DNA of 49,727 nt, taken from the NCBI GenBank assembly GCA_041655595.1, contig JBBAFB010000003.1:1-49727 (forward strand), written 5' to 3'. This document shows positions 6,071 to 39,494 of the stretch, piece after piece (positions within the stretch are counted from its first letter, which is position 1; every line of letters starts with the position of its first letter). This DNA comes from Bacillota bacterium. GTDB taxonomy: Bacteria > Bacillota > DULZ01. Position numbers and translations under genes: made by a program. The notes below the pieces were generated by a model. The model made no database searches. It was given only the letters and a program-made list of their open reading frames with translations, and had not been told where the DNA came from.

Positions 6071-6114
6071 ATTTTTTGGGCTCCTCCATCTGTCCTTAGC
6101 GTTAAAAAACTCGA

Positions 6115-7425: not shown

Positions 7426-7512
7426 TAATAGATTCGCCTCCGTTATTAATTCTATGATTATTCATCTTTCTTCCATTAGCTCATTTTATCATAACTGATA
7501 GGATTTAGGAAA

Positions 7513-7539
7513 TAAAAAAAGGTAGCCCCAGGCTACCTT
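7513..7539 (-). terminator. rho-independent terminator after the MetH-like gene
   Basis: Minus strand reads AAGGTAGCC-TGGG-GCTACCTT followed by TTTTTTTATTT. The stem overlaps the TAG stop (7533-7535). Confidence 0.85.
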
Positions 7540-11010: not shown

Positions 11011-11030
11011 TAACCATCACCTATAATAGC

Positions 11031-19304: not shown

Positions 19305-19319
19305 CGCAATTTCCTTTCT

Positions 19320-21842: not shown

Positions 21843-21918
21843 TGGAGCTGAGGAAGGGACTTGAACCCTCGACCTATTGATTACGAATCAATTGCTCTAC
21901 CGGCTGAGCTACCCCAGC
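21843..21918 (-). tRNA. tRNA-Thr (anticodon CGU), CCA encoded
   Basis: Minus strand: GCTGGGGTAGCTCAGCCGGTAGAGCAATTGATTCGTAATCAATAGGTCGAGGGTTCAAGTCCCTTCCTCAGCTCCA. It folds as a cloverleaf with 7-bp acceptor stem (one G-U), anticodon loop TTCGTAA, T-loop GGTTCAAGTCC. Confidence 0.9.
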
Positions 21919-23109: not shown

Positions 23110-23119
23110 GTTGCTCCTC

Positions 23120-23959: not shown

Positions 23960-24486
23960 ATTACCACCTCCCCTTCACTTTGCACGCCACCGGTTTCTGT
24001 TTCTGTCCCAAAGCCAATATCAAATTTGACCAACTTAACTTCTTCCCAGGAAATGATCTTTCCTTCAATTTTCTGTGCCATTTCTTCCGCCTGTTCTTGC
24101 GATTTAAAGGCCACTATTCCAAAGCTCATGGGTGTATCAATTCTACCTTGAACATAAAAGGCTTCCTTTGCCGGAGCCCACTCAGTTGTTGCAAAATCCT
24201 TCACATATATTGCACCCAGCGACCTTTCCTCCTCTAAACCTAATCTTTTCAAATAAAGTATCAAGCAACCAATATCATCAAAATTTTCGTGTTGCCCAAG
24301 ATTGTTAATTACCTGGCCTGCAAATCGTAAGTCTATAATACTCATTCTGCAAACTGGACAATCATCGAGGGTCGGATCAATAACCCTTGGTTCCAAATCA
24401 AAACTACTTCCGCATCCTGATAGCAAAAACAATAAAATCAACAAAAATGTAATTGGTAATAGCCTTTTATTTAACACTACATTCAC
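23956..24486 (-). CDS. nosL: NosL copper-chaperone lipoprotein
   Basis: 176 aa. Lipobox LLSGCGS. NosL-type CPVCRM motif close to the N-terminus. Confidence 0.8.
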   Translation of the reverse strand: MNVVLNKRLLPITFLLILLFLLSGCGSSFDLEPRVIDPTLDDCPVCRMSIIDLRFAGQVINNLGQHENFDDIGCLILYLKRLGLEEERSLGAIYVKDFATTEWAPAKEAFYVQGRIDTPMSFGIVAFKSQEQAEEMAQKIEGKIISWEEVKLVKFDIGFGTETETGGVQSEGEVVM

Positions 24487-25966: not shown

Positions 25967-26535
25967 CGCCGAAACCTCCAAAGGGCTATCAACATAAGAA
26001 TTATACCAGCCCCTAAAAGATAGCCCCCAAGCTGAAAACTACTATAGGTGGTGAAATTTGCTAGCTGGTTTTGCCCCATCATAGGTGGGACGAAGGGGGG
26101 AATTTTGATAGCCGCCATTGGATCCAAGTCTGTACCATACTTTCTCAGCCAAAACCACAGGTCATAAAGGCCCAACAAACCCCCGGCACCGGCGATAACA
26201 AATGCCGTACTGCCAAGCCACACCTTCCCTGAAATTGCCGTTAAAAAAGCTATGGCCACAATTGCACCCACAATGTAAACCATAAACTGCAACTCGGGAA
26301 AATCGGCCTCAGAAATTTCCTTCATTCCGATGTAATGATTCAAATTGTTTAAAATATCAATTTTCCCACCAATCTTATTAGCAAACACCTCCATCCTGAG
26401 ACCCTCGGGATAAATTGTTGCAATTAATTCCAGTCGCCACCAGGGGAAAAATAAGCACGCTACCAACAACAGCCCAGCAATCACAAATAAAATTCTACCG
26501 GTGATACTAAGTTTTCCATTTAAAAACTTACCCAT
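25939..26535 (-). CDS. nosB: NosB-like integral membrane protein (the gene that follows nosZ in clade II clusters)
   Basis: 198 aa with ~4 TM helices, directly downstream of nosZ. The assignment rests on position and topology only. Confidence 0.55.
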   Translation of the reverse strand: MGKFLNGKLSITGRILFVIAGLLLVACLFFPWWRLELIATIYPEGLRMEVFANKIGGKIDILNNLNHYIGMKEISEADFPELQFMVYIVGAIVAIAFLTAISGKVWLGSTAFVIAGAGGLLGLYDLWFWLRKYGTDLDPMAAIKIPPFVPPMMGQNQLANFTTYSSFQLGGYLLGAGIILMLIALWRFRRWEKPAVEQ

Positions 26536-26579
26536 TTGAATTCTCCTTTCATTTAAGTCATCTAAATAGAAAAGGGGGG

Positions 26580-26603
26580 AGCCTGTATTTTGACATACAG
26601 GCT
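26580..26603 (-). other. stem-loop immediately 3' of nosZ
   Basis: Perfect 9-bp inverted repeat AGCCTGTAT-N6-ATACAGGCT. On the minus strand it is followed by CCCCCCTTTTCTATTT. Possible partial terminator or mRNA-stabilising hairpin inside the operon. Confidence 0.5.
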
Positions 26604-26626
26604 AACTCCCTTTAGTCTGAGAGGAT

Positions 26627-28540
26627 TTAGGACTTTGGCTTAACCAGCAGGAACCCTTGCATTTCCTGGTGTAAGGCTGAGCAGAAATTAGTGCAGTAGA
26701 AGGGATATACCCCAGGTTTATCTGCAACAAATTTCATTGAGGTTGTCTGCCCGGGCTGTACTTCAATATTTAAATCATAGAGGCAGATACCAAAGCCATG
26801 GGTGATATCTTCGTCAAAATCGGTATTGGTTACATACCAAGTAATTTCATCTCCCTCGTCCACTTCTACAATATCCGGGTAATAACGGCTTCGGAAGCTA
26901 TTCATATAAACAGTAACTTGGTTTCCGTTTTTCTCAGTTCGTGCATCTTCCTTTGTATAAACAGCCCCCGGTTGGCTTTCATCCTTGGGATAAATCTTAA
27001 AGACATTTTTCGTAATTTTATCTGCTTTAATCATTTGTGCAAAGTGGGGCTCGGGATCAACCGGGTTATCATAAAGAATCTTCATTTTGGGGGTGGTAAG
27101 GTCAATCAACTGCATACTTTCAGGGTGGGATGGCCCAACAGGCAAAAACTTGTCTTTAGCAAGTTTGTTTAGGGAAATCAGATATTTCCCATCCGGTGAA
27201 ACAGTGTCACCTTCTGCTGCAACTAAGTGGCCTGGGCAGTAATGTACAGGAATTTTATCCACGACTTCAAAAGTATCTAAACTCCACTTGGCTATGGCAC
27301 TTTCAACAAATAAAGTTGTGTAGGCGTGGCCCGTGTTGTCGAATTGTGTATGCAAGGGCCCTAAGCCAACCTCCACTTCAGCAACCCTAACTTTCTCATA
27401 ATTTACAATTGGGAAGCCAGCCTCTTCCCCTTGAAAATCGTTGTTTTCAACACATTCCATGAACTTTTCAAAACTAAATACCGTTGTGATAGGAGCTAAT
27501 TTTCCATTACCAACAATGTATTTTCCGTCCGGTGTAACATCTACACCATGTGGGCTTTTGGCACAAGGTATTAAATATATGGCACCTGGGACATCCAAGG
27601 GGTCAATCACATTTGCACCATCAATTACGGTGTACTTGCCATCCTTCCAGGCCTGTTCCATCATTCTCCAGTTCACAGCCACTATATAATCCCTTTCACG
27701 TTGGGAAGCATTTACCTCCAGTAAAGTGTATGCTTCCTCCGTATTGTAGCTAGTCAAAAATGCCCAACCATCGCTGCCTAATTTACCCGCATCCGAAAGG
27801 TCATAGGACCAAGGAGGTAGCAGGACCTGCCATGGGTTGGACATTTCTCCATCTTCGGGATCAATGGCGATAGCAGCCAATATACATTTGTAATCTTCAC
27901 TAAAATTCTCAATCGGTGAGTAGGTACCATGGGGAACGGGCCCTGCGAATCGTGACGCCATCATATAATATTCGCTATTAGGGGTAACAAAAGCAGCTCC
28001 ATGAGGCCCATAAATATTTGGCACAGTCCCTAGAATTTGACCGGTTGTAAAGGAATCCAGATCAATTCTTGCTACCCTACTGTTGGCGTTATCATTAATA
28101 AATAGCCAGCGACCATCATATTCTCCATTGGTTTCACTTAAACCCGGGTGATGAGCATCCCCCCATCTCCACTCACCTAACATCTCTTTTGATTCTTCTG
28201 TCCAACCATAACCAACAGCCGATTCAGGTGTAAAAACGGGAATCGTTCTGATTCTTCGCATGGACGGAACACCGTAAACAAACACATGCCCTGAATGTCC
28301 ACCCGAAGAAAACATATAGTATTCATCATGTTCCCCGGGTGGCACATATGTTTTTAATGCTGCATCTACGATATCATCAGGGACGCCTGTTTTTGATGCT
28401 ATTGCCCCGGTAAAAATTCCTTCCGTGCCACTGACTTCCCCTTTTGGTGACAATTGAGAAGATAGGACCACCGCTAAAATCAAACCAAGTAATAAACCAG
28501 CCAGGGATAAGGCAATCTTTTTGAAATTTCCATTACCCAT
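26627..28540 (-). CDS. nosZ: nitrous-oxide reductase, clade II (Sec-dependent) type
   Basis: 637 aa. Hydrophobic signal peptide without a twin-arginine. CuZ region WGDAHHPG. C-terminal CuA motif H-x34-C-x3-C-x3-H-x2-M (HGFGI...CTNFCSALHQEM). Confidence 0.95.
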   Translation of the reverse strand: MGNGNFKKIALSLAGLLLGLILAVVLSSQLSPKGEVSGTEGIFTGAIASKTGVPDDIVDAALKTYVPPGEHDEYYMFSSGGHSGHVFVYGVPSMRRIRTIPVFTPESAVGYGWTEESKEMLGEWRWGDAHHPGLSETNGEYDGRWLFINDNANSRVARIDLDSFTTGQILGTVPNIYGPHGAAFVTPNSEYYMMASRFAGPVPHGTYSPIENFSEDYKCILAAIAIDPEDGEMSNPWQVLLPPWSYDLSDAGKLGSDGWAFLTSYNTEEAYTLLEVNASQRERDYIVAVNWRMMEQAWKDGKYTVIDGANVIDPLDVPGAIYLIPCAKSPHGVDVTPDGKYIVGNGKLAPITTVFSFEKFMECVENNDFQGEEAGFPIVNYEKVRVAEVEVGLGPLHTQFDNTGHAYTTLFVESAIAKWSLDTFEVVDKIPVHYCPGHLVAAEGDTVSPDGKYLISLNKLAKDKFLPVGPSHPESMQLIDLTTPKMKILYDNPVDPEPHFAQMIKADKITKNVFKIYPKDESQPGAVYTKEDARTEKNGNQVTVYMNSFRSRYYPDIVEVDEGDEITWYVTNTDFDEDITHGFGICLYDLNIEVQPGQTTSMKFVADKPGVYPFYCTNFCSALHQEMQGFLLVKPKS

Positions 28541-28645
28541 AAAAACAGTTCCTCCTTACTATGTTAAAATTTTTGATTTTCTTTTTAAATATTGGTTTTT
28601 TAACAGCTTCAAATAAACAGTCTTTAATTATCCTTCCTCCGATAC

Positions 28646-29209
28646 TTATTCTTGCCCCCCTTGCCCTAATCCAGTTTCGCCTTCATCATAGGCTGATAAC
28701 CGCCCCGCTACCCTTCCATCGTGGGCTTTTTTGATGAGATCTAAGATTATCACCTTATCCTCATCATTTAATCGGTCTGGAATGATTGCCCCCATTGTAC
28801 CCTCAGGCTCCCGAAGAAAATCTTCCAGACTTCTACCGAAGCGATCTGGGACATCAGTATAAGCTATGGATAAGTCTGGTCCCGTTTCCCCACCTTTAAG
28901 TTCATAATAAGTAATGCGATGGCATTGAACACAGGCCTTCGTTGTAAAAATCTCCTCCGGCATTCCAATATTACTAACACCTTGGCTGCCGGATGTTGCA
29001 GTGGTTACCTTTTGCTGGCCCTCAGGGGTTAAACCCAAATTATAAACCAAAGCAACCTCTTCCTCCATCAGGGGATAGTATTTCGGGGCTGAAATTACAC
29101 TGCCAGTTAGCCCCACCAAGAAACCCATCCCGATCCACATGGCAAGAAGGACTACGGTTTCCTTGCGGATTATACTCACTTTCTCACCTTCCTTTCCCAA
29201 CTTCAGCAT
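28646..29209 (-). CDS. membrane-anchored monohaem c-type cytochrome (likely electron donor to NosZ)
   Basis: One TM helix, then CVQCH. An alternative GTG start at 29179 has a better SD (GGAAGGTGA). Confidence 0.7.
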   Translation of the reverse strand: MLKLGKEGEKVSIIRKETVVLLAMWIGMGFLVGLTGSVISAPKYYPLMEEEVALVYNLGLTPEGQQKVTTATSGSQGVSNIGMPEEIFTTKACVQCHRITYYELKGGETGPDLSIAYTDVPDRFGRSLEDFLREPEGTMGAIIPDRLNDEDKVIILDLIKKAHDGRVAGRLSAYDEGETGLGQGGQE

Positions 29210-29221
29210 TTTGTTGAGTTT

Positions 29222-29611
29222 TTAATTGATTAAACCTATATAGGTCAACACAACCATTATTATCAAGGTTATTTCCGCTAAATAGATTAACCAAGCTCGA
29301 TCAGCAGCTTTTTTGGATTTTCCCCTGTCTAACCACGGGACTGCAATTAAACCAATTATCAGCAACACCGGCAAAAACACACCCAATATATCCGGCACAA
29401 TCGCCAATAGACCAAAAATCCACAGAAAATACCACTCTGGCATAATGTTTTCCGGAGTCATAATGGTATTTGCCGGCGGCCCAAGGTGGGCGGGCCAAAG
29501 ACCTGCCAAAATGAGCACAAATCCAAGAATTGCAAAAGCCACTGATACCTCAGTAATTAAGTGATGAGGGAAGAAAGGTACAGATCCTTTTCGTTTTTCG
29601 ATTGTATTCAA
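29222..29611 (-). CDS. cytochrome b6f/bc subunit IV-like protein (C-terminal half of a split cytochrome b)
   Basis: 129 aa, 3 TM helices, PEWYFLW quinol-site motif. TTG start with AGGAGGTGA upstream. Confidence 0.7.
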   Translation of the reverse strand: MNTIEKRKGSVPFFPHHLITEVSVAFAILGFVLILAGLWPAHLGPPANTIMTPENIMPEWYFLWIFGLLAIVPDILGVFLPVLLIIGLIAVPWLDRGKSKKAADRAWLIYLAEITLIIMVVLTYIGLIN

Positions 29612-29622
29612 ATTATCACCTC

Positions 29623-30261
29623 CTATAGCCCACCAGATATGCCTTGCTTACGAACTAAGTAAAAATGAACGATTAAAAGCCCAATAGTGGACACAGGTAA
29701 GACGCAGATATGCAAGATATAAAAACGCATAAGGGTATACCCTGTAACCTTGCTACCGCCTTGTACAATCGTTAATAGCTTTGACCCGATTAACGGGACT
29801 GTGCCCATGATTTTAGCTCCTATTACCGCCGCCCAATAACCGACCTGGTCCCAAGGCAGTAGGTACCCTGTAAAAGAAAATACAAAAACTAATACAAGTA
29901 ATAAGGATCCAGCCACCCAATTAAATTCCCTGGGATGTTTATAGGCACCGGTGTAGATAACTCGCAACATGTGTAGCACCACCATAATTACCATTAAATT
30001 TGCCGAAATATTATGGATGGAGCGAATTGCTGCTCCCATGGTCACCTCATTTTCTAAAAACAAAATACTTTGATAAGCCAACTCAGGTGTAGGTTTATAA
30101 TACAAAGCTAAAATAGCCCCAGTGATTCCCTGTATGAGAAACAGTAAAAATGTAATTCCTCCAAAACAATACATGAAATTCCGTACCTCTTTTGCCACCG
30201 GCTTAGAGGACATATCATGCCAAATACCCTTTAGGGTAATTTCTTTCTCCTCTACCGCCAC
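29623..30261 (-). CDS. cytochrome b6-type subunit (N-terminal four-helix di-haem half)
   Basis: Start moved to the GTG at 30259-30261, directly after the Rieske stop with GGAGGTGG upstream. 4 TM helices with conserved His pairs (SIHNISANLMV..LHMLR; FYILHICVLP). Confidence 0.85.
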   Translation of the reverse strand: MAVEEKEITLKGIWHDMSSKPVAKEVRNFMYCFGGITFLLFLIQGITGAILALYYKPTPELAYQSILFLENEVTMGAAIRSIHNISANLMVIMVVLHMLRVIYTGAYKHPREFNWVAGSLLLVLVFVFSFTGYLLPWDQVGYWAAVIGAKIMGTVPLIGSKLLTIVQGGSKVTGYTLMRFYILHICVLPVSTIGLLIVHFYLVRKQGISGGL

Positions 30262-30263
30262 CC

Positions 30264-30725
30264 TTACACCACCTCCTTTTGTACCAAAATAACCCCTTCT
30301 TCCACCCAAGCTGTTAACTCTGCTAAAGGTTTCGGTGGAGGGCCATGCAATACATTACCATCCTCGTCAAAAATACCACCATGACAGGGACATTCAAACT
30401 GACGTTTTTTATCGTCCCAGGCTACGATACATCCTAAGTGAGTACATACCCTTGAAAAGGCCCTATATTTGCCATCCTTTTTAAATAGAATAGCCGGAAA
30501 GCCATCATATACAAAATCAAAGGGCTTGCTTGAAATATTATCTTCTTTAGCAACTGCCATTCTAGGTGGTTGGGGCTTAAGAGCCCTGGGAGCATCTATG
30601 GCACCTCCTAATGCGGCCAAGGGAACTACAGCCGCGACAACTGCGGGTGCTGTTGCCACTAAACCCAAAAACTTTCTTCTTGTAACTTCATCATGATCGT
30701 ATTTTTCACTGCACATTTCCTTCAC
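30264..30725 (-). CDS. Rieske [2Fe-2S] protein with Tat signal
   Basis: 153 aa. TRRKFLG twin-arginine motif. Rieske boxes CTHLGC and CPCHGG. Exact start is ambiguous (GTG at 30725 or ATG at 30716). Confidence 0.9.
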   Translation of the reverse strand: MKEMCSEKYDHDEVTRRKFLGLVATAPAVVAAVVPLAALGGAIDAPRALKPQPPRMAVAKEDNISSKPFDFVYDGFPAILFKKDGKYRAFSRVCTHLGCIVAWDDKKRQFECPCHGGIFDEDGNVLHGPPPKPLAELTAWVEEGVILVQKEVV

Positions 30726-30930
30726 ATTCCTCCCTTAAGTAGACTGTTCGGAACGCATTAATAGCCAAAGCAGCCGCTAAACATATCAAACCGGCAAATA
30801 TGCTAACCCAACGGCTATTACCTGCGGCCCAGCTCCTGGCAATCATGAAAACTAAGGTAATTGAAGCCCATGTTCCAAGGCCCGCAATAATTATTGCTTC
30901 TTTGTAACCTGCCTTACTCCAAAAATTCAT
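30706..30930 (-). CDS. small two-TM membrane protein of unknown function
   Basis: Start set to the ATG at 30928-30930 (GGGAG 8 nt upstream). 74 aa, two hydrophobic helices. Embedded in the nos operon. Confidence 0.4.
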   Translation of the reverse strand: MNFWSKAGYKEAIIIAGLGTWASITLVFMIARSWAAGNSRWVSIFAGLICLAAALAINAFRTVYLREECEGNVQ

Positions 30931-30950
30931 TCTTTTCACTCCCTTTCAGC

Positions 30951-31265
30951 TTATCTTGGATAGGCGGTTTCTAGGTATTCAATAATTTGTTCTGTTTCGC
31001 TATCCGTGAAAAACCCACCAAAGTCAACCATTAATTCCACAATTTCTGGCCAAGTAGCGGACCCTTGGTAATTTTGAACCCGATCAACCTCATGACAGTT
31101 TGTACAAGTCGACTGAAATGTTAAATAATTAGCATCTCCTGTTGCTTTGGAATCAGGAGGTAAAGGAATTGCATAGGCCGAAACAAAGATAAAGCCTATT
31201 ACCAAGCCAACAATTAACATTTTGCTGGTTAGGGTCCAAGTCAAAACCTTTTTAGCTGTTTGCAT
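30951..31265 (-). CDS. membrane-anchored monohaem c-type cytochrome (first gene of the nos operon)
   Basis: 104 aa. N-terminal TM helix and CTNCH haem motif. SD AAGGGGGTGA 9 nt upstream. Confidence 0.75.
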   Translation of the reverse strand: MQTAKKVLTWTLTSKMLIVGLVIGFIFVSAYAIPLPPDSKATGDANYLTFQSTCTNCHEVDRVQNYQGSATWPEIVELMVDFGGFFTDSETEQIIEYLETAYPR

Positions 31266-31383: not shown

Positions 31384-31400
31384 ATGCAACTTTCGTGCCA
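31384..31400 (-). promoter_or_regulatory. sigma-54 (-24/-12) promoter of the nos operon
   Basis: Minus strand reads TTGGCACGAAAGTTGCAT, which matches the consensus TGGCAC-N5-TTGCW at every fixed position. It lies ~120 nt upstream of the first cytochrome c start. Confidence 0.75.
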
Positions 31401-31443
31401 AGGTTTAGTGAGTGTGCAAAGGCAATATTAACTATTAATTAAC

Positions 31444-31470
31444 AAAAATGTGGGGAGTATATGCCCCACA
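31444..31470 (-). terminator. probable terminator of the upstream ABC/DUF4418 operon
   Basis: Minus strand reads TGTGGGG-CATATACT-CCCCACA followed by TTTTTGTT. It sits ~45 nt upstream of the nos sigma-54 promoter. It could alternatively be an activator-binding palindrome. Confidence 0.5.
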
Positions 31471-31620
31471 CCAACCCATGTGTGCCCCAACTTTATTCCA
31501 CGGGGACAGCTTTTTGCCCATTTGAATATTTCCACAAACCTTTTTCCCAAAGAAAAATTGCACCCCGCCAATGTTTCAACGGGATGCATATTCAAAGAGA
31601 GGGTGGTTTTTGAAATATTT

Positions 31621-32040
31621 TTATATTGTTATTTCATCCTTAATAGTTTGCAAATACACACCCAACAGGACAATAATCCCCCCTAAAACATAGAACACCT
31701 TTGCGGTAGTATGACATTCCATGGGCATCATGCAAACTCCAATACCTAAATTAGTCGGCAATATTATTACTATTAATCCCAGGGTTGCCATTATTATCCC
31801 AAGACGCTTTTGGACTAATAATTCTTTGCTCAAAAATATCAACAAACCGGTAACTAGTATAACTAGTCCCAGCAAAACCCCCGCCTGCCCCGTATAATGA
31901 CATTTCATATGGACCATTTTACCCGTGGTCAATTCCAAAAGTTTTGCACATACCGGAGCTAATTGAAAAGGTGTTAGGACCACGACTGCTCCAATAATTG
32001 TGCCAACAAGACCGACCGCTTTGCTTCTTTTGTTATACAC
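31621..32040 (-). CDS. DUF4418-like four-TM membrane protein with Cys/His/Met motifs
   Basis: 139 aa. GTG start with AGGAGG 7 nt upstream. Motifs HMKCH and CMMPMECH face the same side between TM helices. Confidence 0.6.
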   Translation of the reverse strand: MYNKRSKAVGLVGTIIGAVVVLTPFQLAPVCAKLLELTTGKMVHMKCHYTGQAGVLLGLVILVTGLLIFLSKELLVQKRLGIIMATLGLIVIILPTNLGIGVCMMPMECHTTAKVFYVLGGIIVLLGVYLQTIKDEITI

Positions 32041-32107
32041 TTTAAAACCTCCTTTTAACTAGTTCTATTGTTAAGCTTTTTATATTGGGTTTAAGGTATT
32101 ATTGGGT

Positions 32108-32830
32108 TTATCTCGACAGATTTACAAACTGGCTTGCCACCTCTTTAAAAAAAGTCCTATTGAGGCAGCCCTGCTTTAAGGAGTAGACGTGCTCAGCATT
32201 TTTTGCAAGCACCACATCGTGGGTGGCAACAACAACTATTTTCCCTGTTCTTCCCTGTCCCATTAACCAATCACCTAAGTGCTGCCGTAAACTCTCATCC
32301 TGTTCCGCCGTTGGTTCATCTGCTAAAATTAAGTCCGGCTCATTTGCCAAGGCTCTAGCCAAAGCAACTCTACGCCTTTGGCCACCGCTTAATTGGTGAG
32401 GTAAAAATTGTGTTCTGTCCGCTAAATCTAGATCCTTTAAAAGAGTGTCTACCCTTTGGTTGGCTTGCATTTCATTCATTTTTTTTCTTCCTTTAATCCA
32501 AAGTGGCAATAAAATATTTTCCTTTACAGTTAGGGTAGGAATTAAATAACATCGCTGAAAAACGAAACCAATTTTGTATGAACGTAAGTAGGTCTTTTCT
32601 TTCTCATCCATCATGCAGATTGAGCGCCCATCAAAAATCACCTCTCCTTGGCTGGGTTTTAGCAAAAGGCCCAAAATATGCAGCAAAGTGCTTTTACCAC
32701 TCCCCGAGGGACCTAACAAGCTAACTGTATCACCGGATTTTAAATTCAAATTAACTCCCCTGATTGGCTGCACCTGACCACCTAAGCCATCCTGGTAGAC
32801 ATGAGAAACGTCTTTTAATTCAATTTCCAT
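32108..32830 (-). CDS. ABC transporter ATP-binding protein
   Basis: 240 aa. Walker A GPSGSGKST, signature LSGGQRRR, Walker B ILADEPT. Confidence 0.9.
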   Translation of the reverse strand: MEIELKDVSHVYQDGLGGQVQPIRGVNLNLKSGDTVSLLGPSGSGKSTLLHILGLLLKPSQGEVIFDGRSICMMDEKEKTYLRSYKIGFVFQRCYLIPTLTVKENILLPLWIKGRKKMNEMQANQRVDTLLKDLDLADRTQFLPHQLSGGQRRRVALARALANEPDLILADEPTAEQDESLRQHLGDWLMGQGRTGKIVVVATHDVVLAKNAEHVYSLKQGCLNRTFFKEVASQFVNLSR

Positions 32831-32843
32831 CTTTTCACCACCC

Positions 32844-34046
32844 TTATTTTAACTCTCCTTCGGTAAGAACAACTACAGGATCAAGTTTGGCTGAGGTTCT
32901 TGCAGGCCCCAAAGCGGCCAAAGTACTAATGAAGATAACCAATAAGACTGCAAAAAATAAAATACCCAGTAGCTGTAAACCTAGTGGTAGTAAGAAAGGA
33001 AATGAACTGTGTTTTTCTATAAAATTTTTCAAAAACCAAATAAAACCAAAGCCCAAGAAAACTCCTATGCCTCCTGCAACAAAGGCAGTGGTAAAGGTTT
33101 CCGCCATAATTAAATTAAATAGACCCTTTTGCCCCATTCCCAGAGCCCTTAAAAGCCCTAACTCTTCCTGCCTTTCCATTACTAAAGACGAATAACGAGA
33201 TAACAATGAGGCTAAGGTCAATCCAATTATTAAAGCTGCCAATAACCAAGTTAAAACTTGAAATACCTTTAACTGTTCTTTTAAATCTAAAAATATTTTG
33301 GCCGATGCCATAGCCTTTACCCCAGGTATGCGCCCAATTTGTCTTGCTAGAATTGCGGGATCATAATTGCTTTCTACTTGTATTAAAACTGCTGAAACCA
33401 ACTCCAAAGGGTCACCTTGCTCCTCCCATATCTCAACCAAAAAAGGACTCCCTGATGCTAAACTTCTTGCGGTTTCGATGGGTACGAAAATAGTTTTATC
33501 AACGCTACCCCCCAAAGGTTTTAAATAATCTACTACCTGAAAGGCCTCTCCCAAAATTAATACCCTGTCTCCGAGAAAGGCCGGAACTCCGCCACCTACA
33601 ACTACTTCTTTTTCTTTTAACTCTCTTCCTAAACCTATAGATAAAAGGCGATTTACCAGAAAATCATTTTCCGGATCGTAACCGACTAAACGGTATTCCT
33701 CTGGTAGGCTACAACAACTTTGATTTAAAGTTTGACTAAAAAACTGAGCTGTGGCTGCCTTTACACCCGGTATTAGAGCTATTTCCTCTACTATTTCTTT
33801 TTTCATATAAATATTTGCGGGAGAACCAGTAAATAGCACCTGCCCTGCCTCAAACTCCGCGGAAGAAGGCAGTGCTAGTATATCGGCACCTAAGTTATCG
33901 GCCGTTCCTTTTGCACCCCTTTCCAACCCCCAAACGGTTAAAAAACAAGTTACCAGGGCAGCAGTGCAAAAGCAAACCACAAAAACAGTTAAACCTGTTT
34001 GCCATGGACGGCGCCGCAAATTTCTACTGATTAAACGCCAATACAT
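32844..34046 (-). CDS. FtsX/MacB-type ABC transporter permease
   Basis: Start moved to the ATG at 34044-34046 (GGGGGGTGG upstream). TM1, a large extracytoplasmic domain, then 3 C-terminal TM helices. Confidence 0.8.
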   Translation of the reverse strand: MYWRLISRNLRRRPWQTGLTVFVVCFCTAALVTCFLTVWGLERGAKGTADNLGADILALPSSAEFEAGQVLFTGSPANIYMKKEIVEEIALIPGVKAATAQFFSQTLNQSCCSLPEEYRLVGYDPENDFLVNRLLSIGLGRELKEKEVVVGGGVPAFLGDRVLILGEAFQVVDYLKPLGGSVDKTIFVPIETARSLASGSPFLVEIWEEQGDPLELVSAVLIQVESNYDPAILARQIGRIPGVKAMASAKIFLDLKEQLKVFQVLTWLLAALIIGLTLASLLSRYSSLVMERQEELGLLRALGMGQKGLFNLIMAETFTTAFVAGGIGVFLGFGFIWFLKNFIEKHSSFPFLLPLGLQLLGILFFAVLLVIFISTLAALGPARTSAKLDPVVVLTEGELK

Positions 34047-34088
34047 TTTTCCACCCCCCACAATTTGCGTTTACAGTAATATTAATTT

Positions 34089-34104
34089 AGCAAAAAACAT
34101 GCCA
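34089..34104 (-). promoter_or_regulatory. sigma-54 promoter of the FtsX-ABC/DUF4418 operon
   Basis: Minus strand reads TGGCATGTTTTTTGCT (GG-N10-GC spacing correct), ~45 nt upstream of the permease start. Confidence 0.65.
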
Positions 34105-34344
34105 AGATATTTGTTGCGGAATTATGCACTTACAAGTGAAACAATTATCTTATTCGCCTTTTATGCTATTTTGAGCGAGACATGTCTGACCCTACTGTCC
34201 CCTCCCTGCCCCTAATTTCTGTAACACAAAATACTTACAAGGTGGCAAGCCTTGCCCCCAAACGCTTGATTTATGGTCCTTGCCATAAACAATTAACTGG
34301 GTTTTTTCGCCTTAAATATCAGCATTTGATTACCTTTGAAAAGT

Positions 34345-34360
34345 TGGAATGTTTTTTGCT
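34345..34360 (+). promoter_or_regulatory. sigma-54 promoter of the lipoprotein gene
   Basis: Plus strand reads TGGAATGTTTTTTGCT, identical to the divergent promoter at 15 of 16 positions. It lies ~52 nt upstream of the ATG at 34412. Confidence 0.6.
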
Positions 34361-34411: not shown

Positions 34412-34972
34412 ATGCAACAAAGAAAAATTAATAAAATTCTATCAGTTCTATTGTCTATTCTTATTTTAGGCTCCATCACCAGTTGCGGACAAAACACACT
34501 CCCGGGAACAAATGAAATAAAAGATGCCGATCAGACTGTCCACAACCATCAGAGTTTTAGCACTGTCTACGAGCTGGATCAAATAATAGAGTTACACCCT
34601 ATTAAAGTGAGACTGGTAAATACCGGAATAATTTCTAACCCTTTATATGAAAAAGGAAGTGATGATCAGAAGGGACATTTGGCATTAGGTCTGGAAGTAG
34701 GAAATGTATCAAGCGATCTGGCATGGTTTTTTTCCGAACAATCCGAGATAATTCTGAATTCGGGTGAAATCTTAGAAACGGATGTAAACACATCCTCTGA
34801 TTTGGGAGGAAGTTTTCCACCCCACAGATTGAAAAAAGGGTTTTTAGTTTTTCCTTTTAAAGATACGGAGCCAAATACAATCAAAGAATATGTTTTAAAA
34901 ATCAAAGCCCCCTTAAATAGCAAACAAATTTCCATTGGGGAGGATTTAGAATTAAAAATTAACCTAAAATAA
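34412..34972 (+). CDS. secreted lipoprotein, DUF4352-like beta-sandwich
   Basis: 186 aa. Lipobox GSITSCG. Family call is tentative. Confidence 0.55.
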   Translation: MQQRKINKILSVLLSILILGSITSCGQNTLPGTNEIKDADQTVHNHQSFSTVYELDQIIELHPIKVRLVNTGIISNPLYEKGSDDQKGHLALGLEVGNVSSDLAWFFSEQSEIILNSGEILETDVNTSSDLGGSFPPHRLKKGFLVFPFKDTEPNTIKEYVLKIKAPLNSKQISIGEDLELKINLK

Positions 34973-34994
34973 AAAAAGCCTTAAGGCTTTTTTT
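34971..34994. terminator. bidirectional terminator between convergent genes
   Basis: AAAAAAAGCC-TTAA-GGCTTTTTTT, a palindromic hairpin with A/T runs on both sides. Confidence 0.75.
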
Positions 34995-35009: not shown

Positions 35010-36386
35010 CTAAATTAAGTTATATTTATTTAATAAACGGTGAATCGTTTTTCTGTCAATCTCTGCAGTTATAGCTGCCTGGGTTACATTTCCATCATGC
35101 TTTTCCAATAAATTTTCTATATATTTTATTTCAAAATCTTTTACCCAGTTTTGTTTTGCCACATGAAAAGGCAGATCGAAAAGCATTTGATTTGATCTAT
35201 CTTCATTATTTTTAAGAAGGTTTGGGGGTAAATCTTCAGGCAATATTGTTTCCCCTTCACAAAGTGAGATAGCTCTTTCTATCACATTTTTTAACTCCCT
35301 AACATTACCCGGCCAGTTATAACTTTGTAAAATCTCCATCGTTTCAGCTGAAACCCCGCTAATTTTCTTTTGTGCCGTCTCTGCAAATTTGCGACTAAAA
35401 AAATACACTAGTAGAGGGATATCCTGCTGCCTTTCTCTTAACGGTGGTAGTTTCAAATTAATTACATTAATTCTATAGTATAAATCGTCTCTAAATTCTT
35501 TGTGTTGAATTGCCTCTTCTAAATCGCGATTTGTTGCGGAAACTAGGCGGAAATCTACTTTAATCAACTGATTTCCCCCCACTCTTCTAAATGAGCGTTC
35601 TTCTAAAGCTCTTAACAACTTTGCCTGTAAAATCGGACTCATTTCACCTATTTCATCTAGGAAAAGAGTACCCTTATCTGCCAGTTCCATTAAACCCTTT
35701 TTAGTCATGTGGGCCCCGGTAAAGGCACCTTTTTCGTGACCAAAAAGTTCACTTTCCAGTAAATTATCCGGCAAAGAAGCGCAGTCAACTGGTATAAAAG
35801 GTCCTAGGCTCCGATTGCTGTTTTTGTGGACACTTCTGGCGATCAGTTCTTTCCCTGTACCACTTTCCCCTTTGATCAGTACTGCTGCTTCACTGCCACC
35901 TAATTTACCGATGGTTCTAAAAATTTCTTGAAGCCCACCGTTAGCGCCAATAATATTTTCTGTGTGGAGGGGCTCTTGGATTTGCATTCTTAATAATCGG
36001 TTTTCTTCCCTTAATGCTTTTTCCCGCAAGGCTTTTTCAATCACAATCTGCAATTCATCAACGGAAAAAGGTTTAGCGAGATAATCCCGTGCTCCACCTT
36101 TCATAGCCCTGACCGCAGTATCTATGCTGGCATAACCCGTAATAACAATTACACATGTGTCGGGAAAAAGCTCCTTCGCAACTTTTAAAACTTGAAATCC
36201 ATCTACCTCCGGCATTTTTAAATCAGTAATAATCAAATCCGGTTGTATTTTTTCCATTTCGGCTACCGCTTTCGCACCCTCATTAAAGTTTACCGGTTTA
36301 TAGCCCATTTTTTTAACAACACGCGAGCAAGTTTCAAGCATATCAAGTTCATCATCAACAAGCATTACAACCCTTGGTTCTTCCAT
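35010..36386 (-). CDS. sigma-54-dependent NtrC-family response regulator (REC + AAA+ + Fis-type HTH)
   Basis: 458 aa. Receiver (DDE...IITDLKMP), Walker A GESGTGKE, sigma-54 contact loop GAFTGA, C-terminal HTH (GNVTQAAITAEIDRKTIHRLL). Confidence 0.9.
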   Translation of the reverse strand: MEEPRVVMLVDDELDMLETCSRVVKKMGYKPVNFNEGAKAVAEMEKIQPDLIITDLKMPEVDGFQVLKVAKELFPDTCVIVITGYASIDTAVRAMKGGARDYLAKPFSVDELQIVIEKALREKALREENRLLRMQIQEPLHTENIIGANGGLQEIFRTIGKLGGSEAAVLIKGESGTGKELIARSVHKNSNRSLGPFIPVDCASLPDNLLESELFGHEKGAFTGAHMTKKGLMELADKGTLFLDEIGEMSPILQAKLLRALEERSFRRVGGNQLIKVDFRLVSATNRDLEEAIQHKEFRDDLYYRINVINLKLPPLRERQQDIPLLVYFFSRKFAETAQKKISGVSAETMEILQSYNWPGNVRELKNVIERAISLCEGETILPEDLPPNLLKNNEDRSNQMLFDLPFHVAKQNWVKDFEIKYIENLLEKHDGNVTQAAITAEIDRKTIHRLLNKYNLI

Positions 36387-36392
36387 CTATTA

Positions 36393-37658
36393 CTACTCCC
36401 TTATGCTAATATATGGGAAGTAAATACTAAATCTACTTCCCTTACCCAGTTCGCTGGATACATTTATGGTACCACCATGGTCGCCAATAATTTTTAAACT
36501 AACGGGTAAGCCCAAACCAGTGCCCAGGTCTCTGCTTTTAGTGCTAAAAAAAGGATCAAAAAGTTTAGCTATAGTTTCTTCTGTCATCCCCTCGCCAGTA
36601 TCTTCTATATCCAGCCTGTTCACCTTTAACTCCGGCAAGTTTCGGCAAACTATAAAAATATTTCCACCACGTGGCATGGCATCCCCGGCATTGGCGATTA
36701 GATTAACTAATACTTGTTGAAGCTGCTCCTTATTCCCTTCCACTACAATGGAATCCGGCAATTTTATTTTAAACTCAATCCCTTTTCTAAGAAATTGTCT
36801 TTTAAACCAATCAACAGTTTCATTCACTAAAGGTTTCAAATCAACCAACTCTGTTTCTGCAATGGGTGGCCTTGTAAAAGTAAGCAGTCCCCTTGTAATA
36901 TGACTGATTCTTTCTATATGTTTTTTTATAATTTCCAAATCTTTAACCAATTCGGGAGACAAACTACTACCCATCTCTAAAAATATTAACCCCAACCTTG
37001 CACTGATGACACCCACCGGGTTATTTATTTCATGCGCCAAATTTGCAGCCAGTTGTCCTGCCGCTGCTAGCCTTTCGGTTAGTATCATCTGATTTTGTGC
37101 CTTTTCTAATTCCTCAATACTTTCTCTGAGGGCCTCATTTAGCCCGCAAATTTCTTTATTGGCTTTTTCTAGGCTGTCCCTTTCTTCAGCTAAATTGTTT
37201 ATTAAACGATCCCTATGCAGGGTTGCGGCTAATTGATGTCCAATGGCCATGATAATTTCCATATTGGCTCTACTCAATTTTTCTTCCCCGGGGTTTTTTA
37301 AAGTTATTACCCCTAAAACTTCAGTTCCTGCAACTAGTGGTATGCAGACATGACAAAGGGAGTAACACTCTTTCTGAACCACACCACAACAGTGAGACCT
37401 TTTATCTGCATTAATAATAATTGGGAGCTGGTCATTATAAACCTTACATTGGTGTTTTTTATCAATGGTACTACAGACAAAATTGCCCCCATCTTGTAGC
37501 TTAATTTGGGACTTATAAGGACTAAATGCCTTATTTAATTCGTTTTTTGCTGCATCAAGCATTTCATCAATAGACAAAGGTAAAAAGCTGGTAATATTAT
37601 TAATTTTAATTAAAGCCTCCGTTTGCAAGTTCAGCTTCCTGTCAAGCAAAAACCTCAC
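36393..37658 (-). CDS. soluble sensor histidine kinase with a Cys-rich GAF-like N-terminal domain
   Basis: 421 aa with no TM helices. GAF-like region contains 7 Cys, including CC-x6-C-x3-C-x2-C. H-box LAHEINNPVG, N box NLIANAGDA, G boxes DTGEGM and GTGLGL. The start may be the TTG at 37628 (AGGAAG SD) rather than the GTG at 37658. Confidence 0.85.
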   Translation of the reverse strand: MRFLLDRKLNLQTEALIKINNITSFLPLSIDEMLDAAKNELNKAFSPYKSQIKLQDGGNFVCSTIDKKHQCKVYNDQLPIIINADKRSHCCGVVQKECYSLCHVCIPLVAGTEVLGVITLKNPGEEKLSRANMEIIMAIGHQLAATLHRDRLINNLAEERDSLEKANKEICGLNEALRESIEELEKAQNQMILTERLAAAGQLAANLAHEINNPVGVISARLGLIFLEMGSSLSPELVKDLEIIKKHIERISHITRGLLTFTRPPIAETELVDLKPLVNETVDWFKRQFLRKGIEFKIKLPDSIVVEGNKEQLQQVLVNLIANAGDAMPRGGNIFIVCRNLPELKVNRLDIEDTGEGMTEETIAKLFDPFFSTKSRDLGTGLGLPVSLKIIGDHGGTINVSSELGKGSRFSIYFPYISIRE

Positions 37659-38664
37659 CCTTTACCACTTTACCCATTATACTAATGTTTGCCGGATTTG
37701 CATTTAACGGGACTTCACACCCTGTACTTAAAATAAAACCTTTCCCTTTGCTCCCAATATCAAGCAAATCCTTACATTGTTTAGCTATATCTTCTGTCTT
37801 TAGATTAATTAGATCAAAAGGTTTAATGTTACCAGCTAAGGCGAGATCAGGTGCTAGATCCATACACTCTTTTAAAGAAACTTCATAATCAATTGTGGCC
37901 AAATCAACACCGCAATCTTTATAGTAAGGTATAATGTATTTTGTCCTACCCGTAATCATTAACCAATTTATTTTTGCACCTTCAAGACGAAAGTGAGAAA
38001 ATAGTTCCTTTAAGAGGGGGGCTACAAATTTGCGAAAAATCCGAGGAGGAATAATATTTTGCGAAGCGGTTGGTTCCATGATGATAATTATTGAAGCCCC
38101 CGACCTAATCAGGGCCTTTCCATAATCTTTGCAAACATGAAATGTTTGTCTTAACAAGCTTCGAAACTTATCTGGTTCATCTACTAATAAATACAGCAAT
38201 TGATCTAAACCCATTAGTTGTCCCGCAATGCTTGTCGGTCCAACCACACACCCAACCACCGGTATATCATCCTTCACATTTTCCTTTAAGATAGCACATG
38301 CTTTAATTACTTCCCGCATCCTGCCCGCTGTATAAGGATCGAATAACGGCAGGTCCTTGATCTTTGATAGACTAGAGAAAACAGGTCTTGTCACATAAGG
38401 GTAATCATTTTCAGGAAAATATGTTTTACAGCCCAGAACCTCCGCCTCTAGGGAGTTATCACCATAGGCAAAAACAGCATCATAGCCAAAGTGCTTTTGT
38501 GCCCTTAGTTGACAATCTGCCATTATTTCTCCGTTGTCCAAATAATCTTTGAGCCAAACCCCCTGAAAAATTGCAGCATAACCAAATACAAGCGGAATGC
38601 AAATACAATCAGTATGTTTTTTTTTGCCTTCAACCATTGCTATCATTTTTTGCAATACGGTCAT
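37642..38664 (-). CDS. UroD-superfamily MtaA/MtbA-like corrinoid methyltransferase homologue
   Basis: Start moved to the ATG at 38662-38664 (GGAGTG upstream). 340 aa. URO-D/MT2-A-like length and sequence, and it follows a corrinoid protein gene. Confidence 0.75.
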   Translation of the reverse strand: MTVLQKMIAMVEGKKKHTDCICIPLVFGYAAIFQGVWLKDYLDNGEIMADCQLRAQKHFGYDAVFAYGDNSLEAEVLGCKTYFPENDYPYVTRPVFSSLSKIKDLPLFDPYTAGRMREVIKACAILKENVKDDIPVVGCVVGPTSIAGQLMGLDQLLYLLVDEPDKFRSLLRQTFHVCKDYGKALIRSGASIIIIMEPTASQNIIPPRIFRKFVAPLLKELFSHFRLEGAKINWLMITGRTKYIIPYYKDCGVDLATIDYEVSLKECMDLAPDLALAGNIKPFDLINLKTEDIAKQCKDLLDIGSKGKGFILSTGCEVPLNANPANISIMGKVVKGEVFA

Positions 38665-38668
38665 AATG

Positions 38669-39349
38669 TTACACTCCTTCTTTCTTTCGAAGATAGTCAA
38701 TTACGTCAAAAGCAGTATTAGCAACAAAATCAACATTTAAGTCCTTAGGGTTTGATTGGCGGGTGGCACCACCCCCCGCTAAAACAAGGACACCTTCCAA
38801 ATCAATCGCACCTAATGCTGGCTTCACTTCCTTAATGTAATGCATGGTGGTAGTGATTAAACTGCTAATGCCGATATATTTTGCGCCTTCTTTTTTAGCC
38901 TCCATTGCAAAAACTTCCGGCTCGACATCCTTTCCCAAATCTACCACTCTATAGCCGGCCATTTTTAGTAAGATGGCCACTATATTTTTACCAAGGTCGT
39001 GAATATCCCCCTTAATGGTCCCTAAAACAAAAACCTCTTTACCTTTATACCAGGTATCTAAAGAAACACACTCCCCTTCACCTAAACGTGGACAAATAGA
39101 TTGTTCCATAACTTCCATAACAGCCCTGCCAGCCAATAATATTTCCAAAAGATTAAAATGGTCATTATTACATTTAACATCCAAAGAAACTAGGGCTTCA
39201 GTTAGGCCTTCCTCTACAACTTGACGCACATCAACACCTAGAGCCAGTAAGTTTTCCGCTACCCTGACCGCCTCGGTAGCCTGTCCATCTGCCACAAGGT
39301 CTGCTAGTCTTTTTATTTCATTTTTTCTTGAATCTTTTTTTGCTGCCAT
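38669..39349 (-). CDS. corrinoid (B12)-binding protein, MtaC/MtbC-like (cap + Rossmann domain)
   Basis: 226 aa. Base-off/His-on signature GDIHDLGKN ... SSLITTT ... LAGGGA. SD GGAGG 6 nt upstream. Confidence 0.85.
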   Translation of the reverse strand: MAAKKDSRKNEIKRLADLVADGQATEAVRVAENLLALGVDVRQVVEEGLTEALVSLDVKCNNDHFNLLEILLAGRAVMEVMEQSICPRLGEGECVSLDTWYKGKEVFVLGTIKGDIHDLGKNIVAILLKMAGYRVVDLGKDVEPEVFAMEAKKEGAKYIGISSLITTTMHYIKEVKPALGAIDLEGVLVLAGGGATRQSNPKDLNVDFVANTAFDVIDYLRKKEGV

Positions 39350-39453: not shown

Positions 39454-39485
39454 AAAAAAACCTGCACCGCGATAGCGGTACAGGT
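39454..39485 (-). terminator. rho-independent terminator after metK
   Basis: Minus strand reads ACCTGTACCGC-TATC-GCGGTGCAGGT (11 bp, one G-U) followed by TTTTTTT. Confidence 0.85.
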
Positions 39486-39494
39486 TAAGCTGCT

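Follow-up and report, generated by a model that had tools for sequence, protein, structure and literature searches.

We analyzed a 49,727-nt stretch of DNA from a Bacillota bacterium (assembly GCA_041655595.1, contig JBBAFB010000003.1, positions 1 to 49,727), referred to below as the window, which carries a gene cluster for nitrous oxide (N2O) reductase (nos) and, close to it, four consecutive genes for a corrinoid protein, a UroD/MtaA-like protein, a soluble histidine kinase, and an activator of σ54-dependent transcription. We propose that these four genes (hereafter, the module) encode a cytoplasmic two-component system that takes its input from the corrinoid protein and directs its σ54 output onto a lipoprotein gene, a MacB-type ABC operon, and the nos cluster. 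Judged from the sequence comparisons presented here, we give this proposal an even chance of being correct. The output half is an ordinary NtrC/AtoC-like system, and the input module appears to be undescribed. How N2O respirers detect N2O, especially non-denitrifying organisms of clade II, is an open question, and the locus offers a testable candidate for the answer.

The module forms a compact operon

All four genes lie on the minus strand. The first encodes the corrinoid protein of 226 amino acids (aa) (38669-39349), which consists of a B12-binding_2 cap and a B12-binding Rossmann domain. It is followed, after a 4-nt gap (38665-38668), by the gene for the 340-aa UroD/MtaA-like protein (37642-38664; hereafter, the UroD-like protein), which is presumed to act on the corrinoid protein as its methyltransferase. 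The gene for the 418-aa soluble histidine kinase, recognized by its Pfam domains, overlaps the UroD-like gene by 8 nt as publicly called (36393-37649), and alternative starts at 37658 and 37628 would give an overlap and a 13-nt gap, respectively. Another 6 nt separate the kinase gene from the last one, which encodes a 458-aa NtrC/AtoC-type response regulator (35010-36386), a σ54 enhancer-binding protein according to Pfam and NCBIfam (hereafter, the activator).

The upstream boundary of the operon is a terminator-like hairpin 3′ of metK (39459-39486, minus strand), with a 12-bp stem that contains 7 GC pairs and is followed by a T-run. At the other end, a bidirectional terminator-like hairpin (AAAAAAAGCCTTAAGGCTTTTTTT, 34971-34994) separates the activator and lipoprotein genes, which converge on it. 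The open reading frames (ORFs) and their spacing agree with the tight packing of four minus-strand genes described in the original prediction, and the two hairpins correspond to the strong terminators that it had placed around them.

The same prediction held that the operon pairs a B12-binding protein with a UroD/MtaA-type partner, lacks a reductive activase, and does not amount to a complete methyl-transfer pathway. Pfam confirms the pair (PF02310, PF02607, and PF01208). No gene for a methyltransferase 1 (MT1) or a pterin-binding methyltransferase adjoins the operon; MT1-, pterin-, or MtrH-type methyltransferases were found neither beside the operon nor in the fetched loci of other genomes, and the sole pterin-binding domain among the scanned ORFs of the window belongs to MetH (7533-9944). 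The statement about the activase is true for the window but does not extend to its relatives, which encode the RACo-type activase in cis (L007, L013, and the wide family described below; L numbers denote loci in other genomes).

The module neighbors clade II nosZ in two phyla

For the nos-linked sub-family, the question of whether the module neighbors clade II nosZ elsewhere can be answered positively, with six loci in two phyla. The exact corrinoid protein was found on metagenome contigs with an identical layout. Homologues of the UroD-like protein at 66, 53, 48, and 45% identity define four further loci, all of which show the order corrinoid protein, UroD-like protein, kinase, activator, and then the divergent lipoprotein gene. 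Wherever the contig continues, these are followed by MacB-ABC-DUF4418 and then by cytochrome c-Rieske-cytochrome b-nosZ. The arrangement is syntenic in Bacillota from 100% to ~45% identity, and the MacB-ABC-DUF4418 unit between the sensor module and nos (31621-34061 in the window) is syntenic in L005-L012 and L172.

By comparison, the upstream contexts differ among loci, being metK, cytochrome c maturation genes, cobamide genes with RACo, or a GntR regulator. Therefore, the conserved unit is the module together with nos rather than a larger block. A metK gene lies directly upstream of the module in the window and in L004, and not in the other orthologous loci. In L007, cobamide biosynthesis genes (CobD, CobS, and others) and RACo occupy positions 1-9117 directly upstream of the corrinoid gene, and this RACo is unusually long (812 aa) and carries a Fer2 domain.

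The arrangement was also reached from the opposite direction. A reverse search from NosZ gave Desulfitobacterium chlororespirans as the source of the closest named NosZ (76%), and the same arrangement is present in this cultured isolate (L172), so that the module is found beside nos in a cultured, anaerobically tractable genus. The full arrangement is likewise present in Bacillota MAG074 (L012), a metagenome-assembled genome (MAG) recovered in a scan of species-representative genomes. In the Nitrospirota MAG of locus L013, the order is corrinoid protein, UroD-like protein, DUF1638, RACo, kinase, and activator, after which nosZ follows directly, with no ABC unit; a −24/−12-like sequence (AGGCACGCAAATTGCA) lies ~150 nt before the nosZ ATG. 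The DUF1638 gene of this locus (11017-11571) is inserted between those for the UroD-like protein and RACo. In a second Nitrospirota locus, L020, the module precedes a Crp/Fnr gene and a Rieske/cytochrome b/multiheme cytochrome c cluster, and the fetched sequence ends before any nosZ. L020 aside, nosZ was seen in every orthologous locus with enough downstream sequence (L006, L007, L009, L012, L172, and L013).

In neighbor-joining trees, the nos-type corrinoid proteins form one clade of six Bacillota and three Nitrospirota loci, and the nos-type UroD-like proteins form one clade of the same loci and one extra sequence. A short contig of a Brocadiaceae MAG (L089) carries, at 294-3154, a long UroD-like ORF that groups with the nos-type UroD clade and is followed by a RACo-like ORF.

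Related cassettes join the same proteins to many signaling outputs

The species-representative genome scan, performed with the UroD alignment, yielded at least 80 loci, and all ORFs of the loci were scored with the window proteins and RACo. The statements on carriers and counts that follow refer to the matches listed. The carriers belong to Nitrospirota, Desulfobacterota, Chloroflexota, Acidobacteriota, Actinomycetota, and Armatimonadota; they also include Betaproteobacteria (Sulfuricella, Azonexus, and Dechloromonas), Acetobacterium tundrae, and, among the archaea, Methanocellaceae, Methanoregulaceae, and Promethearchaeota. The order corrinoid protein, UroD-like protein, RACo, and then a signaling protein, usually with a spacing of 0-4 nt, was found in 64 of the 90 UroD loci. 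We refer to these loci as the wide family, and to the arrangement as the cassette.

The signaling proteins of the cassette are 386-988 aa long, and every one of them starts with one conserved GAF-like domain of ~165 aa, the consensus of which reads AFIKxAQYLAxLTxQQDxW...SGFLA...AFLPI...VMLVGH...PLxKELLNxYLAxAGLxGTT. Pfam offers no cover of this domain beyond a sub-threshold GAF_3 match. The outputs that follow it are varied, namely HisKA/HATPase in 30 of 43 proteins, HisKA_2 in two, GGDEF in Acetobacterium, Oscillochloris, and Chloroploca, HD-GYP in Sulfuricella, Azonexus, and Hydrogenophilales, and SpoIIE in Actinomycetota and Anaerolineae. The only enrichment among the 222 flanking ORFs (the two nearest on each side; 109 downstream and 113 upstream) is in response regulators, kinases, and GGDEF proteins; there is none in MT1-type, pterin, or MtrH methyltransferases or in transporters.

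Since one input domain is joined to many outputs and the same three genes adjoin it, we consider the arrangement to be a sensory cassette, in which the corrinoid proteins are most likely the sensory input and not cargo. This strongly supports the view, put forward in the original prediction, that the corrinoid and UroD-like proteins have a sensory rather than a catabolic role, given the varied outputs and the lack of catabolic neighbors in the wide cassette. It counts against the alternative given there, that the corrinoid genes are merely co-regulated methyl-transfer genes, since this would leave the combination of one domain with many outputs unexplained. The module of the window consists of the corrinoid protein, the UroD-like protein, and the sensor without RACo; it otherwise fits the definition of the cassette, and its corrinoid and UroD-like proteins group with the family.

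Five of the loci (L034, L046, L048, L060, and L073), from Sulfuricella, Azonexus, and Dechloromonas MAGs, combine the cassette with an HD-GYP phosphodiesterase for cyclic di-GMP (c-di-GMP) as output. According to the literature, Azonexus is a dominant N2O respirer of clade II and can cope with the inactivation of cobalamin that this gas causes.

The kinase carries a diverged, Cys-rich sensor domain

The kinase is composed of an N-terminal Cys-rich GAF-like domain (~residues 1-125), a helix of ~100 residues, a HisKA domain with His206, and a HATPase_c domain. Pfam reports a weak GAF match together with HisKA (PF00512) and HATPase_c (PF02518), and His206, within the motif AHEINNP, is invariant. 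When the N-terminal domain was compared with that of the wide-family sensors using hhalign, the two aligned over their full length (probability 85.6%, E = 5.6e-6, 148 columns); by this comparison, the sensor domain of the nos type and the N-terminal domain of the wide family are homologues.

An exhaustive phmmer search of 1.84 billion representatives returned only ~13 clusters with a full-length match to the kinase N-terminus. The remaining matches were to giant multi-GAF proteins, at residues ~100-165, which confirms the GAF fold of this region. The window kinase is a member of a small, diverged sub-family. An AlphaFold2 (AF2) model built on the 13-sequence alignment (predicted local distance difference test [pLDDT] of 80; the single-sequence model, with a pLDDT of 43, was unusable) contains a GAF-like α/β domain, the ~100-residue helix, and the kinase core, and the loops that bear the Cys residues are its only low-confidence portions. 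The best fold match of the kinase is the cytoplasmic domain of ZraS; the Foldseek search of the Protein Data Bank (PDB) with the model was dominated by kinase cores (ZraS and HK853) and did not inform the sensor domain. Comparison of the sensor domain with PDB sequences gave no match, including none to a solved Fe-S sensor. With the kinase N-terminus as query, a word-index search for homologues gave matches in the HisKA region only, and a scan of metagenome contigs with the kinase alignment found generic kinase cores only (query residues ~176-412), which is uninformative on the link to nos.

On the output side, the activator has REC (PF00072), Sigma54_activat (PF00158, with GAFTGA), and HTH_8 (PF02954) domains. 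The best NCBIfam matches of the activator and the kinase are AtoC and AtoS, respectively, with all equivalog models below their cut-offs.

Three Cys positions of the sensor domain (C68, C87/88, and C102) are invariant in 9 kinase orthologues and in 13 representatives at ≤50% identity, and define the motif C...C...[HQ]xC[IVL]P. Members from Bacillota carry up to three additional conserved Cys residues. In the wide family, no Cys is conserved in the N-terminal domain.

These residues raise the alternative that the kinase needs no partner for sensing and that an Fe-S cluster or another metal in its Cys-rich GAF domain reports O2 or redox state, while the corrinoid and UroD-like proteins are enzymes that happen to be co-transcribed. 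NreB and AirS are Fe-S sensor kinases, and nos expression generally requires anoxia. The invariance of the three Cys positions, with more Cys in Bacillota, would be in keeping with a cluster-binding site, and low-confidence Cys loops in an otherwise confident AF2 model are what is expected for a site without its cofactor. However, the homologous domain of the wide family does without conserved Cys and is nevertheless always encoded after the corrinoid protein, the UroD-like protein, and RACo. In addition, the corrinoid and UroD-like proteins have no catabolic partners in any locus examined, and they are kept together with the kinase in every nos-type locus complete enough to tell. We consider it unlikely that the kinase senses alone.

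The corrinoid protein and its UroD-like partner

The corrinoid protein matches PF02310 (2.8e-18) and PF02607 in Pfam, carries the His-on DxHxxG motif in the form GDIHDLG, and has intact SxL and GG motifs. The DxHxxG motif is retained in 82 of 84 members of the corrinoid family, and the nearest solved structure is that of a Moorella corrinoid protein (1y80, 7.7e-23). By these features, the corrinoid protein is of the canonical type, and its DxHxxG, SxL, and GG motifs predict that the 226-aa protein binds a cobamide.

The UroD-like protein matches the URO-D family (PF01208, E = 1.2e-62), and scores 154 bits against the MtaA/CmuA models of NCBIfam, for which the cut-off is 235. Its nearest solved structure is MtaA (4ay7, E = 2.6e-38). 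The zinc-site segment LHICG of MtaA aligns with WLMITG in the window protein and with WLHIAG in the family consensus, and the Cys of GCE is the sole MtaA zinc-site residue that is invariant in the UroD-like family. Because the His-x-Cys zinc ligands of MtaA are lost, the UroD-like protein is not a thiol methyltransferase of the coenzyme M type.

The pairing of the two proteins has a counterpart in a fused gene, P0083 of a Thermodesulfovibrionales genome, in which the URO-D and B12-binding domains are joined in one 550-aa protein. The existence of such fusion proteins supports a functional coupling of the corrinoid and UroD-like proteins. Long UroD ORFs of 570-610 aa in three Actinomycetes MAGs (L035, L049, and L079) suggest, by their length only, a similar fusion to a corrinoid protein.

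Given such a pair, the stimulus could be a methyl donor or alkylating compound, for example, a methoxylated aromatic, a methyl halide, or a methylated sulfur compound or amine. The UroD-like enzyme would then methylate the Co(I) protein, methyl-Co(III) would be the signal, and N2O would not be the stimulus. This would make sense of the UroD family, whose members are corrinoid methyltransferases, and of MtaA as the closest structure; that the wide family encodes RACo in cis implies that a Co(I)/methyl-Co(III) cycle is operating, and, without a second methyltransferase, the methylated state could persist long enough to act as a signal. It sits poorly with the degenerate MtaA-type zinc site and with a cassette that contains no transporter or substrate-specific gene. 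Moreover, a sensor of methyl donors would have no evident reason to control N2O reductase, yet the link to nos is kept in two phyla. Altogether, we regard a methyl-donor stimulus as rather improbable.

σ54 promoters suggest a link from the activator to nos

Three σ54 −24/−12 boxes were located: one before the MacB-type ABC operon (TGGCATGTTTTTTGC, 34090-34104, minus strand), one, read from the sequence, before the lipoprotein gene at 34412-34972 (TGGAATGTTTTTTGC, 34345-34359, plus strand), and one before the cytochrome c-Rieske-cytochrome b-nosZ operon (TGGCACGAAAGTTGC, 31386-31400, minus strand). That three σ54 promoters lie downstream of the module, one of them in front of the nosZ operon, had been predicted earlier, as had the presence of only one σ54 enhancer-binding protein in the window. 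The boxes are kept in orthologous loci, and no second σ54 activator is encoded within the window, so that both claims held. The window contains 14 matches to a loose pattern, TGGC-N8-TGC, for which 5.6 would be expected; none of the shuffles gave as many. No σ54 box was found before the corrinoid gene.

The MacB-side box is kept in all Bacillota orthologous loci, including L012, and the lipoprotein-side box, with which it forms a divergent pair, is kept in L005/6, L007, L009, and L172. The window, L005/6, L007, and L012 have the box before the cytochrome c gene, which is missing from L009 and L172. In these last two loci (L172 being D. chlororespirans), the gap between DUF4418 and cytochrome c is 49 bp long and contains no box. 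Since this gap carries no promoter, we read nos in L009 and L172 as part of the ABC operon, and it appears to be transcribed only from the σ54 promoter that adjoins the activator gene. Among the arguments that sequence can provide for control of nos by the activator, this arrangement is the strongest.

Two regions may contain the sites to which the activator binds. The first is the divergent control region (34105-34344), a candidate enhancer or upstream activating sequence (UAS), with GGGRCA half-sites at 34196, 34207, and 34253. The second lies upstream of the nos-operon promoter (31401-31620), with half-sites at 31462, 31483, and 31503 and a palindrome (TGGGGCATATACTCCCCA). Upstream of both promoter sets in six loci, 30 GGGRCA(T) half-sites were observed versus ~4.8 expected, and they are often palindromic, as for GGGACATATATGTCCC in L012. 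In an unbiased hexamer scan of the control regions, GGGACA ranked first, being found in 6 of 7 genomes versus 1.0 expected. These counts are suggestive of GGGRCA(T) as a candidate half-site for the activator. The loose palindrome GGGRCAY-N8-CCC, with 9 matches in the window versus 9.5 expected, shows no enrichment, and the UAS proposal therefore draws on the hexamer and half-site counts only. A near-perfect palindrome at 14516-14533 (GGGGCATGATTTGTCCCC) resembles the candidate activator site; it sits inside a gene for a DctM-type TRAP transporter (13446-15425) and may be a coincidence.

The same promoters allow a narrower interpretation, in which the two-component system controls only the lipoprotein and MacB-type ABC genes, its proximity to nos is incidental, and another activator drives nos. 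The divergent σ54 promoter pair does directly adjoin the activator gene, and two-component systems beside FtsX-type ABC transporters are common in Bacillota. Against this, nos in L009 and L172 has no promoter of its own and begins 49 bp after the ABC operon, whereas in the Nitrospirota locus L013 the ABC unit is missing and the module abuts nosZ with its −24/−12-like box. The synteny with nos also holds to 45% identity in varied contexts, and GGGRCA sites lie upstream of both promoter sets. Regulation restricted to the ABC genes thus seems very improbable to us.

A proposed mechanism and its possible stimulus

The proposed two-component system with corrinoid input could operate as follows. The 226-aa protein would bind a cobamide, which the UroD/MtaA-like protein would methylate, demethylate, or hold in a defined state. 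Resetting of Co(II) to Co(I) would fall to a RACo-type activase, whose gene lies in cis in relatives and is presumably located in trans in the present genome. The GAF-like domain of the kinase would read the state of the corrinoid, be it Co(I), Co(II), or methyl-Co(III), and the kinase would then phosphorylate the NtrC-type activator. The latter would bind upstream of the three −24/−12 promoters, with GGGRCA(T) as the candidate half-site. The three invariant Cys residues may serve as a further input, of the Fe-S, redox, or O2 kind, or as an electron relay.

N2O is known to oxidize Co(I), a supernucleophile, and at micromolar levels it inhibits processes that depend on Co(I) (PMC11131594; the inhibition also in PMC11096178 and PMC11906303). 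For the nos-linked sub-family, N2O would be the most economical stimulus, because it is the substrate of the regulated enzyme and an oxidant of Co(I), and because the RACo of the cassette resets an oxidized corrinoid. Nevertheless, that N2O specifically is the stimulus is a tentative suggestion, which we hold to be doubtful rather than probable. More tentative still is the broadest form of the idea, namely, that the module is the first dedicated biological N2O sensor, in which a Co(I)-cobamide, reduced by RACo and conditioned by the UroD-like protein, is oxidized by N2O and read by a GAF-like domain that turns on the σ54-dependent genes for N2O reductase, and that it belongs to a wider family of cobamide-based chemical sensors for oxidants and electrophiles that attack Co(I).

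Several observations weigh against our reading. The regulon, the binding of a corrinoid, and the relay from the corrinoid protein to the kinase are matters that we infer from gene context. No RACo activase is encoded in the 49.7-kb window, and the UroD-like protein is without the His-x-Cys zinc ligands of MtaA. With its three invariant Cys residues, not found in the wide family, the kinase could be an Fe-S or redox sensor in its own right. The UAS motif was spotted post hoc, and the hexamer enrichment by itself would not survive correction for multiple tests. Clade II nos clusters also occur apart from the module: Schinkia sp. CFF1 has a nos cluster and no module, and in an Armatimonadota MAG (GCA_031432505.1, L175, ~5400-7400), a LuxR-type response regulator and a PAS-σ54 activator precede clade II nos, again with no module. 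In L175, a PAS-σ54 activator takes the place of the module, so that clade II nos clusters under σ54 control seem to recur with a variety of sensors. Finally, most of the wide-family cassettes, among the matches listed, are not adjacent to nosZ, and the generic stimulus of the cassette therefore need not be N2O.

Photolysis of a methyl-cobamide on the corrinoid protein, with RACo and the methyltransferase regenerating it, would turn the module into a light sensor, an idea that the existence of B12 photoreceptors (CarH and AerR), a weak CarH match (6e-5), and the phototrophic Chloroflexales among the wide-family carriers bring to mind, but that is hardly credible given that most carriers are strict anaerobes from sediment, subsurface, and digesters, including methanogens and Asgard archaea, that nothing links light to N2O respiration, and that the CarH model scores far below its cut-off.

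If the sensing of N2O through the corrinoid protein holds, the sensor would report N2O by way of the chemistry that causes N2O toxicity. If the cassette is real, the redox or methylation state of a cobamide would join heme, flavin, Fe-S, and B12 photolysis as signaling chemistry in both bacteria and archaea. The wide family, which spans Nitrospirota, Desulfobacterota, Chloroflexota, Acidobacteriota, Betaproteobacteria, Bacillota, and archaea, would then feed kinase, c-di-GMP, and PP2C outputs. The proposal, if true, would also provide handles for predicting or engineering N2O-sink activity.

Relation to known systems

O-demethylases comprise methyltransferases I and II, a corrinoid protein, and a RACo/RamA-type activating enzyme. 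The module resembles MtaABC of methanogens and the O-demethylases of Acetobacterium and Desulfitobacterium in its small DxHxxG B12 protein, its UroD-family partner, and, in relatives, its RACo-type activase. It differs from them in that it has a single methyltransferase-like gene, with neither an MT1 nor a pterin/MtrH-type methyltransferase 2, in that the His-x-Cys of the MtaA zinc site is gone, and in that a signaling protein, rather than catabolic genes, comes next. The mec dichloromethane cassette, which also includes a corrinoid protein, RACo, and a histidine kinase, was considered as a counterpart and rejected, since it forms a full catabolic pathway with several methyltransferases and its kinase is of the PocR type.

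On the output side, the module is like NtrB/NtrC, AtoS/AtoC, and ZraS/ZraR, with a HisKA/HATPase kinase, a REC-AAA+(GAFTGA)-HTH_8 activator, and −24/−12 promoters nearby. What sets it apart is the soluble kinase with a Cys-rich GAF-like input, the co-encoded corrinoid proteins, and the putative nos target.

H-NOX and NosP are stand-alone heme sensors of NO encoded beside kinases or c-di-GMP enzymes. In its logic only, the module may be compared with their operons, where a separate cofactor protein is combined with a kinase, GGDEF, or HD-GYP partner, a combination that could signal the presence of a small reactive nitrogen oxide. The cofactor here would instead be a cobamide, and no Pfam or NCBIfam match to an H-NOX or NosP domain was found in any of the four proteins. 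Because the cassette further includes a UroD-like enzyme and RACo, an ATP-dependent reductase, a sensor that is chemically reset rather than one of reversible binding is implied.

A cobamide-binding domain in a regulatory role is also known from the photoreceptors CarH/LitR and the antirepressors AerR/PpaA. Unlike CarH/LitR, in which the B12-binding domain is fused to a DNA-binding domain of the MerR type, the corrinoid protein has no DNA-binding domain (22.4 bits against the CarH model NF052513, for which the cut-off is 400), and signaling would pass through a kinase or c-di-GMP enzyme. In Paracoccus, B12 riboswitch control of metE under N2O stress links N2O to B12 status, as related in the account cited by PMC11906303; by contrast, a search with Rfam found no riboswitch in the window. 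With NosR/NirI, FNR/NNR/DNR, and NssA/B/C of Campylobacterota (Crp-Fnr) the module would share its target, nosZ and accessory genes controlled by anoxia or N-oxides (PMC11539149). It belongs to different protein families, and its control would be σ54 dependent.

The mechanism of N2O sensing is still described as unidentified (PMC11539149). In the full-text literature, to which our search was confined (subscription-only papers lying outside it), we came upon no account of the module as a regulator of nos or of the wider cassette, and the papers on Desulfitobacteriaceae nos clusters do not mention the module.

The nos cluster and other genes of the window

The nos cluster occupies 22135-31265 on the minus strand, as delimited by Pfam and NCBIfam matches. 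It begins with genes for cytochrome c (30951-31265), a Rieske protein (30264-30725), and cytochrome b (29623-30309 and 29222-29611), followed by one for a 187-aa protein, listed between cytochrome b and nosZ, and by nosZ itself (26627-28540), which matches TIGR04246 with 915 bits versus a cut-off of 625. A 198-aa ORF at 25939-26535, with no Pfam match, lies at the nosB position, and we label it nosB by position and size alone. The cluster further encodes nosD, nosL, nosY, and nosF. It thus includes the ABC-2 permease, ABC ATPase, NosD, NosL, Rieske, and cytochrome b domains by which clade II clusters are recognized, and its nosZ is, on this sequence evidence, of the Sec-dependent clade II type. 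Neither a Crp/Fnr nor a NosR gene was found beside the module or the nos cluster, where the ORFs from nosF to metK were scanned with Pfam and are otherwise accounted for.

Between the module and nos, also on the minus strand, Pfam identifies a MacB/FtsX-type permease (32844-34061), an ABC ATPase (32108-32830), and a DUF4418 membrane protein (31621-32040). Divergent from this operon is the lipoprotein gene (34412-34972, plus strand), which has the lipobox ITSC and no family match. The lipoprotein and the MacB/ABC/DUF4418 unit, both behind σ54 promoters, are possibly tied to NosZ maturation or export.

MetH is the classic enzyme target of N2O, and the window encodes, on the minus strand at 7533-9944, an 803-aa cobalamin-dependent methionine synthase with S-methyl_trans, Pterin_bind, and B12-binding domains and no activation domain. 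The downstream end of the nos cluster is marked by a tRNA gene (21846-21918, minus strand), and beyond it, as seen from nosF, lies a second HlyD/ABC/MacB efflux operon (18141-21583).

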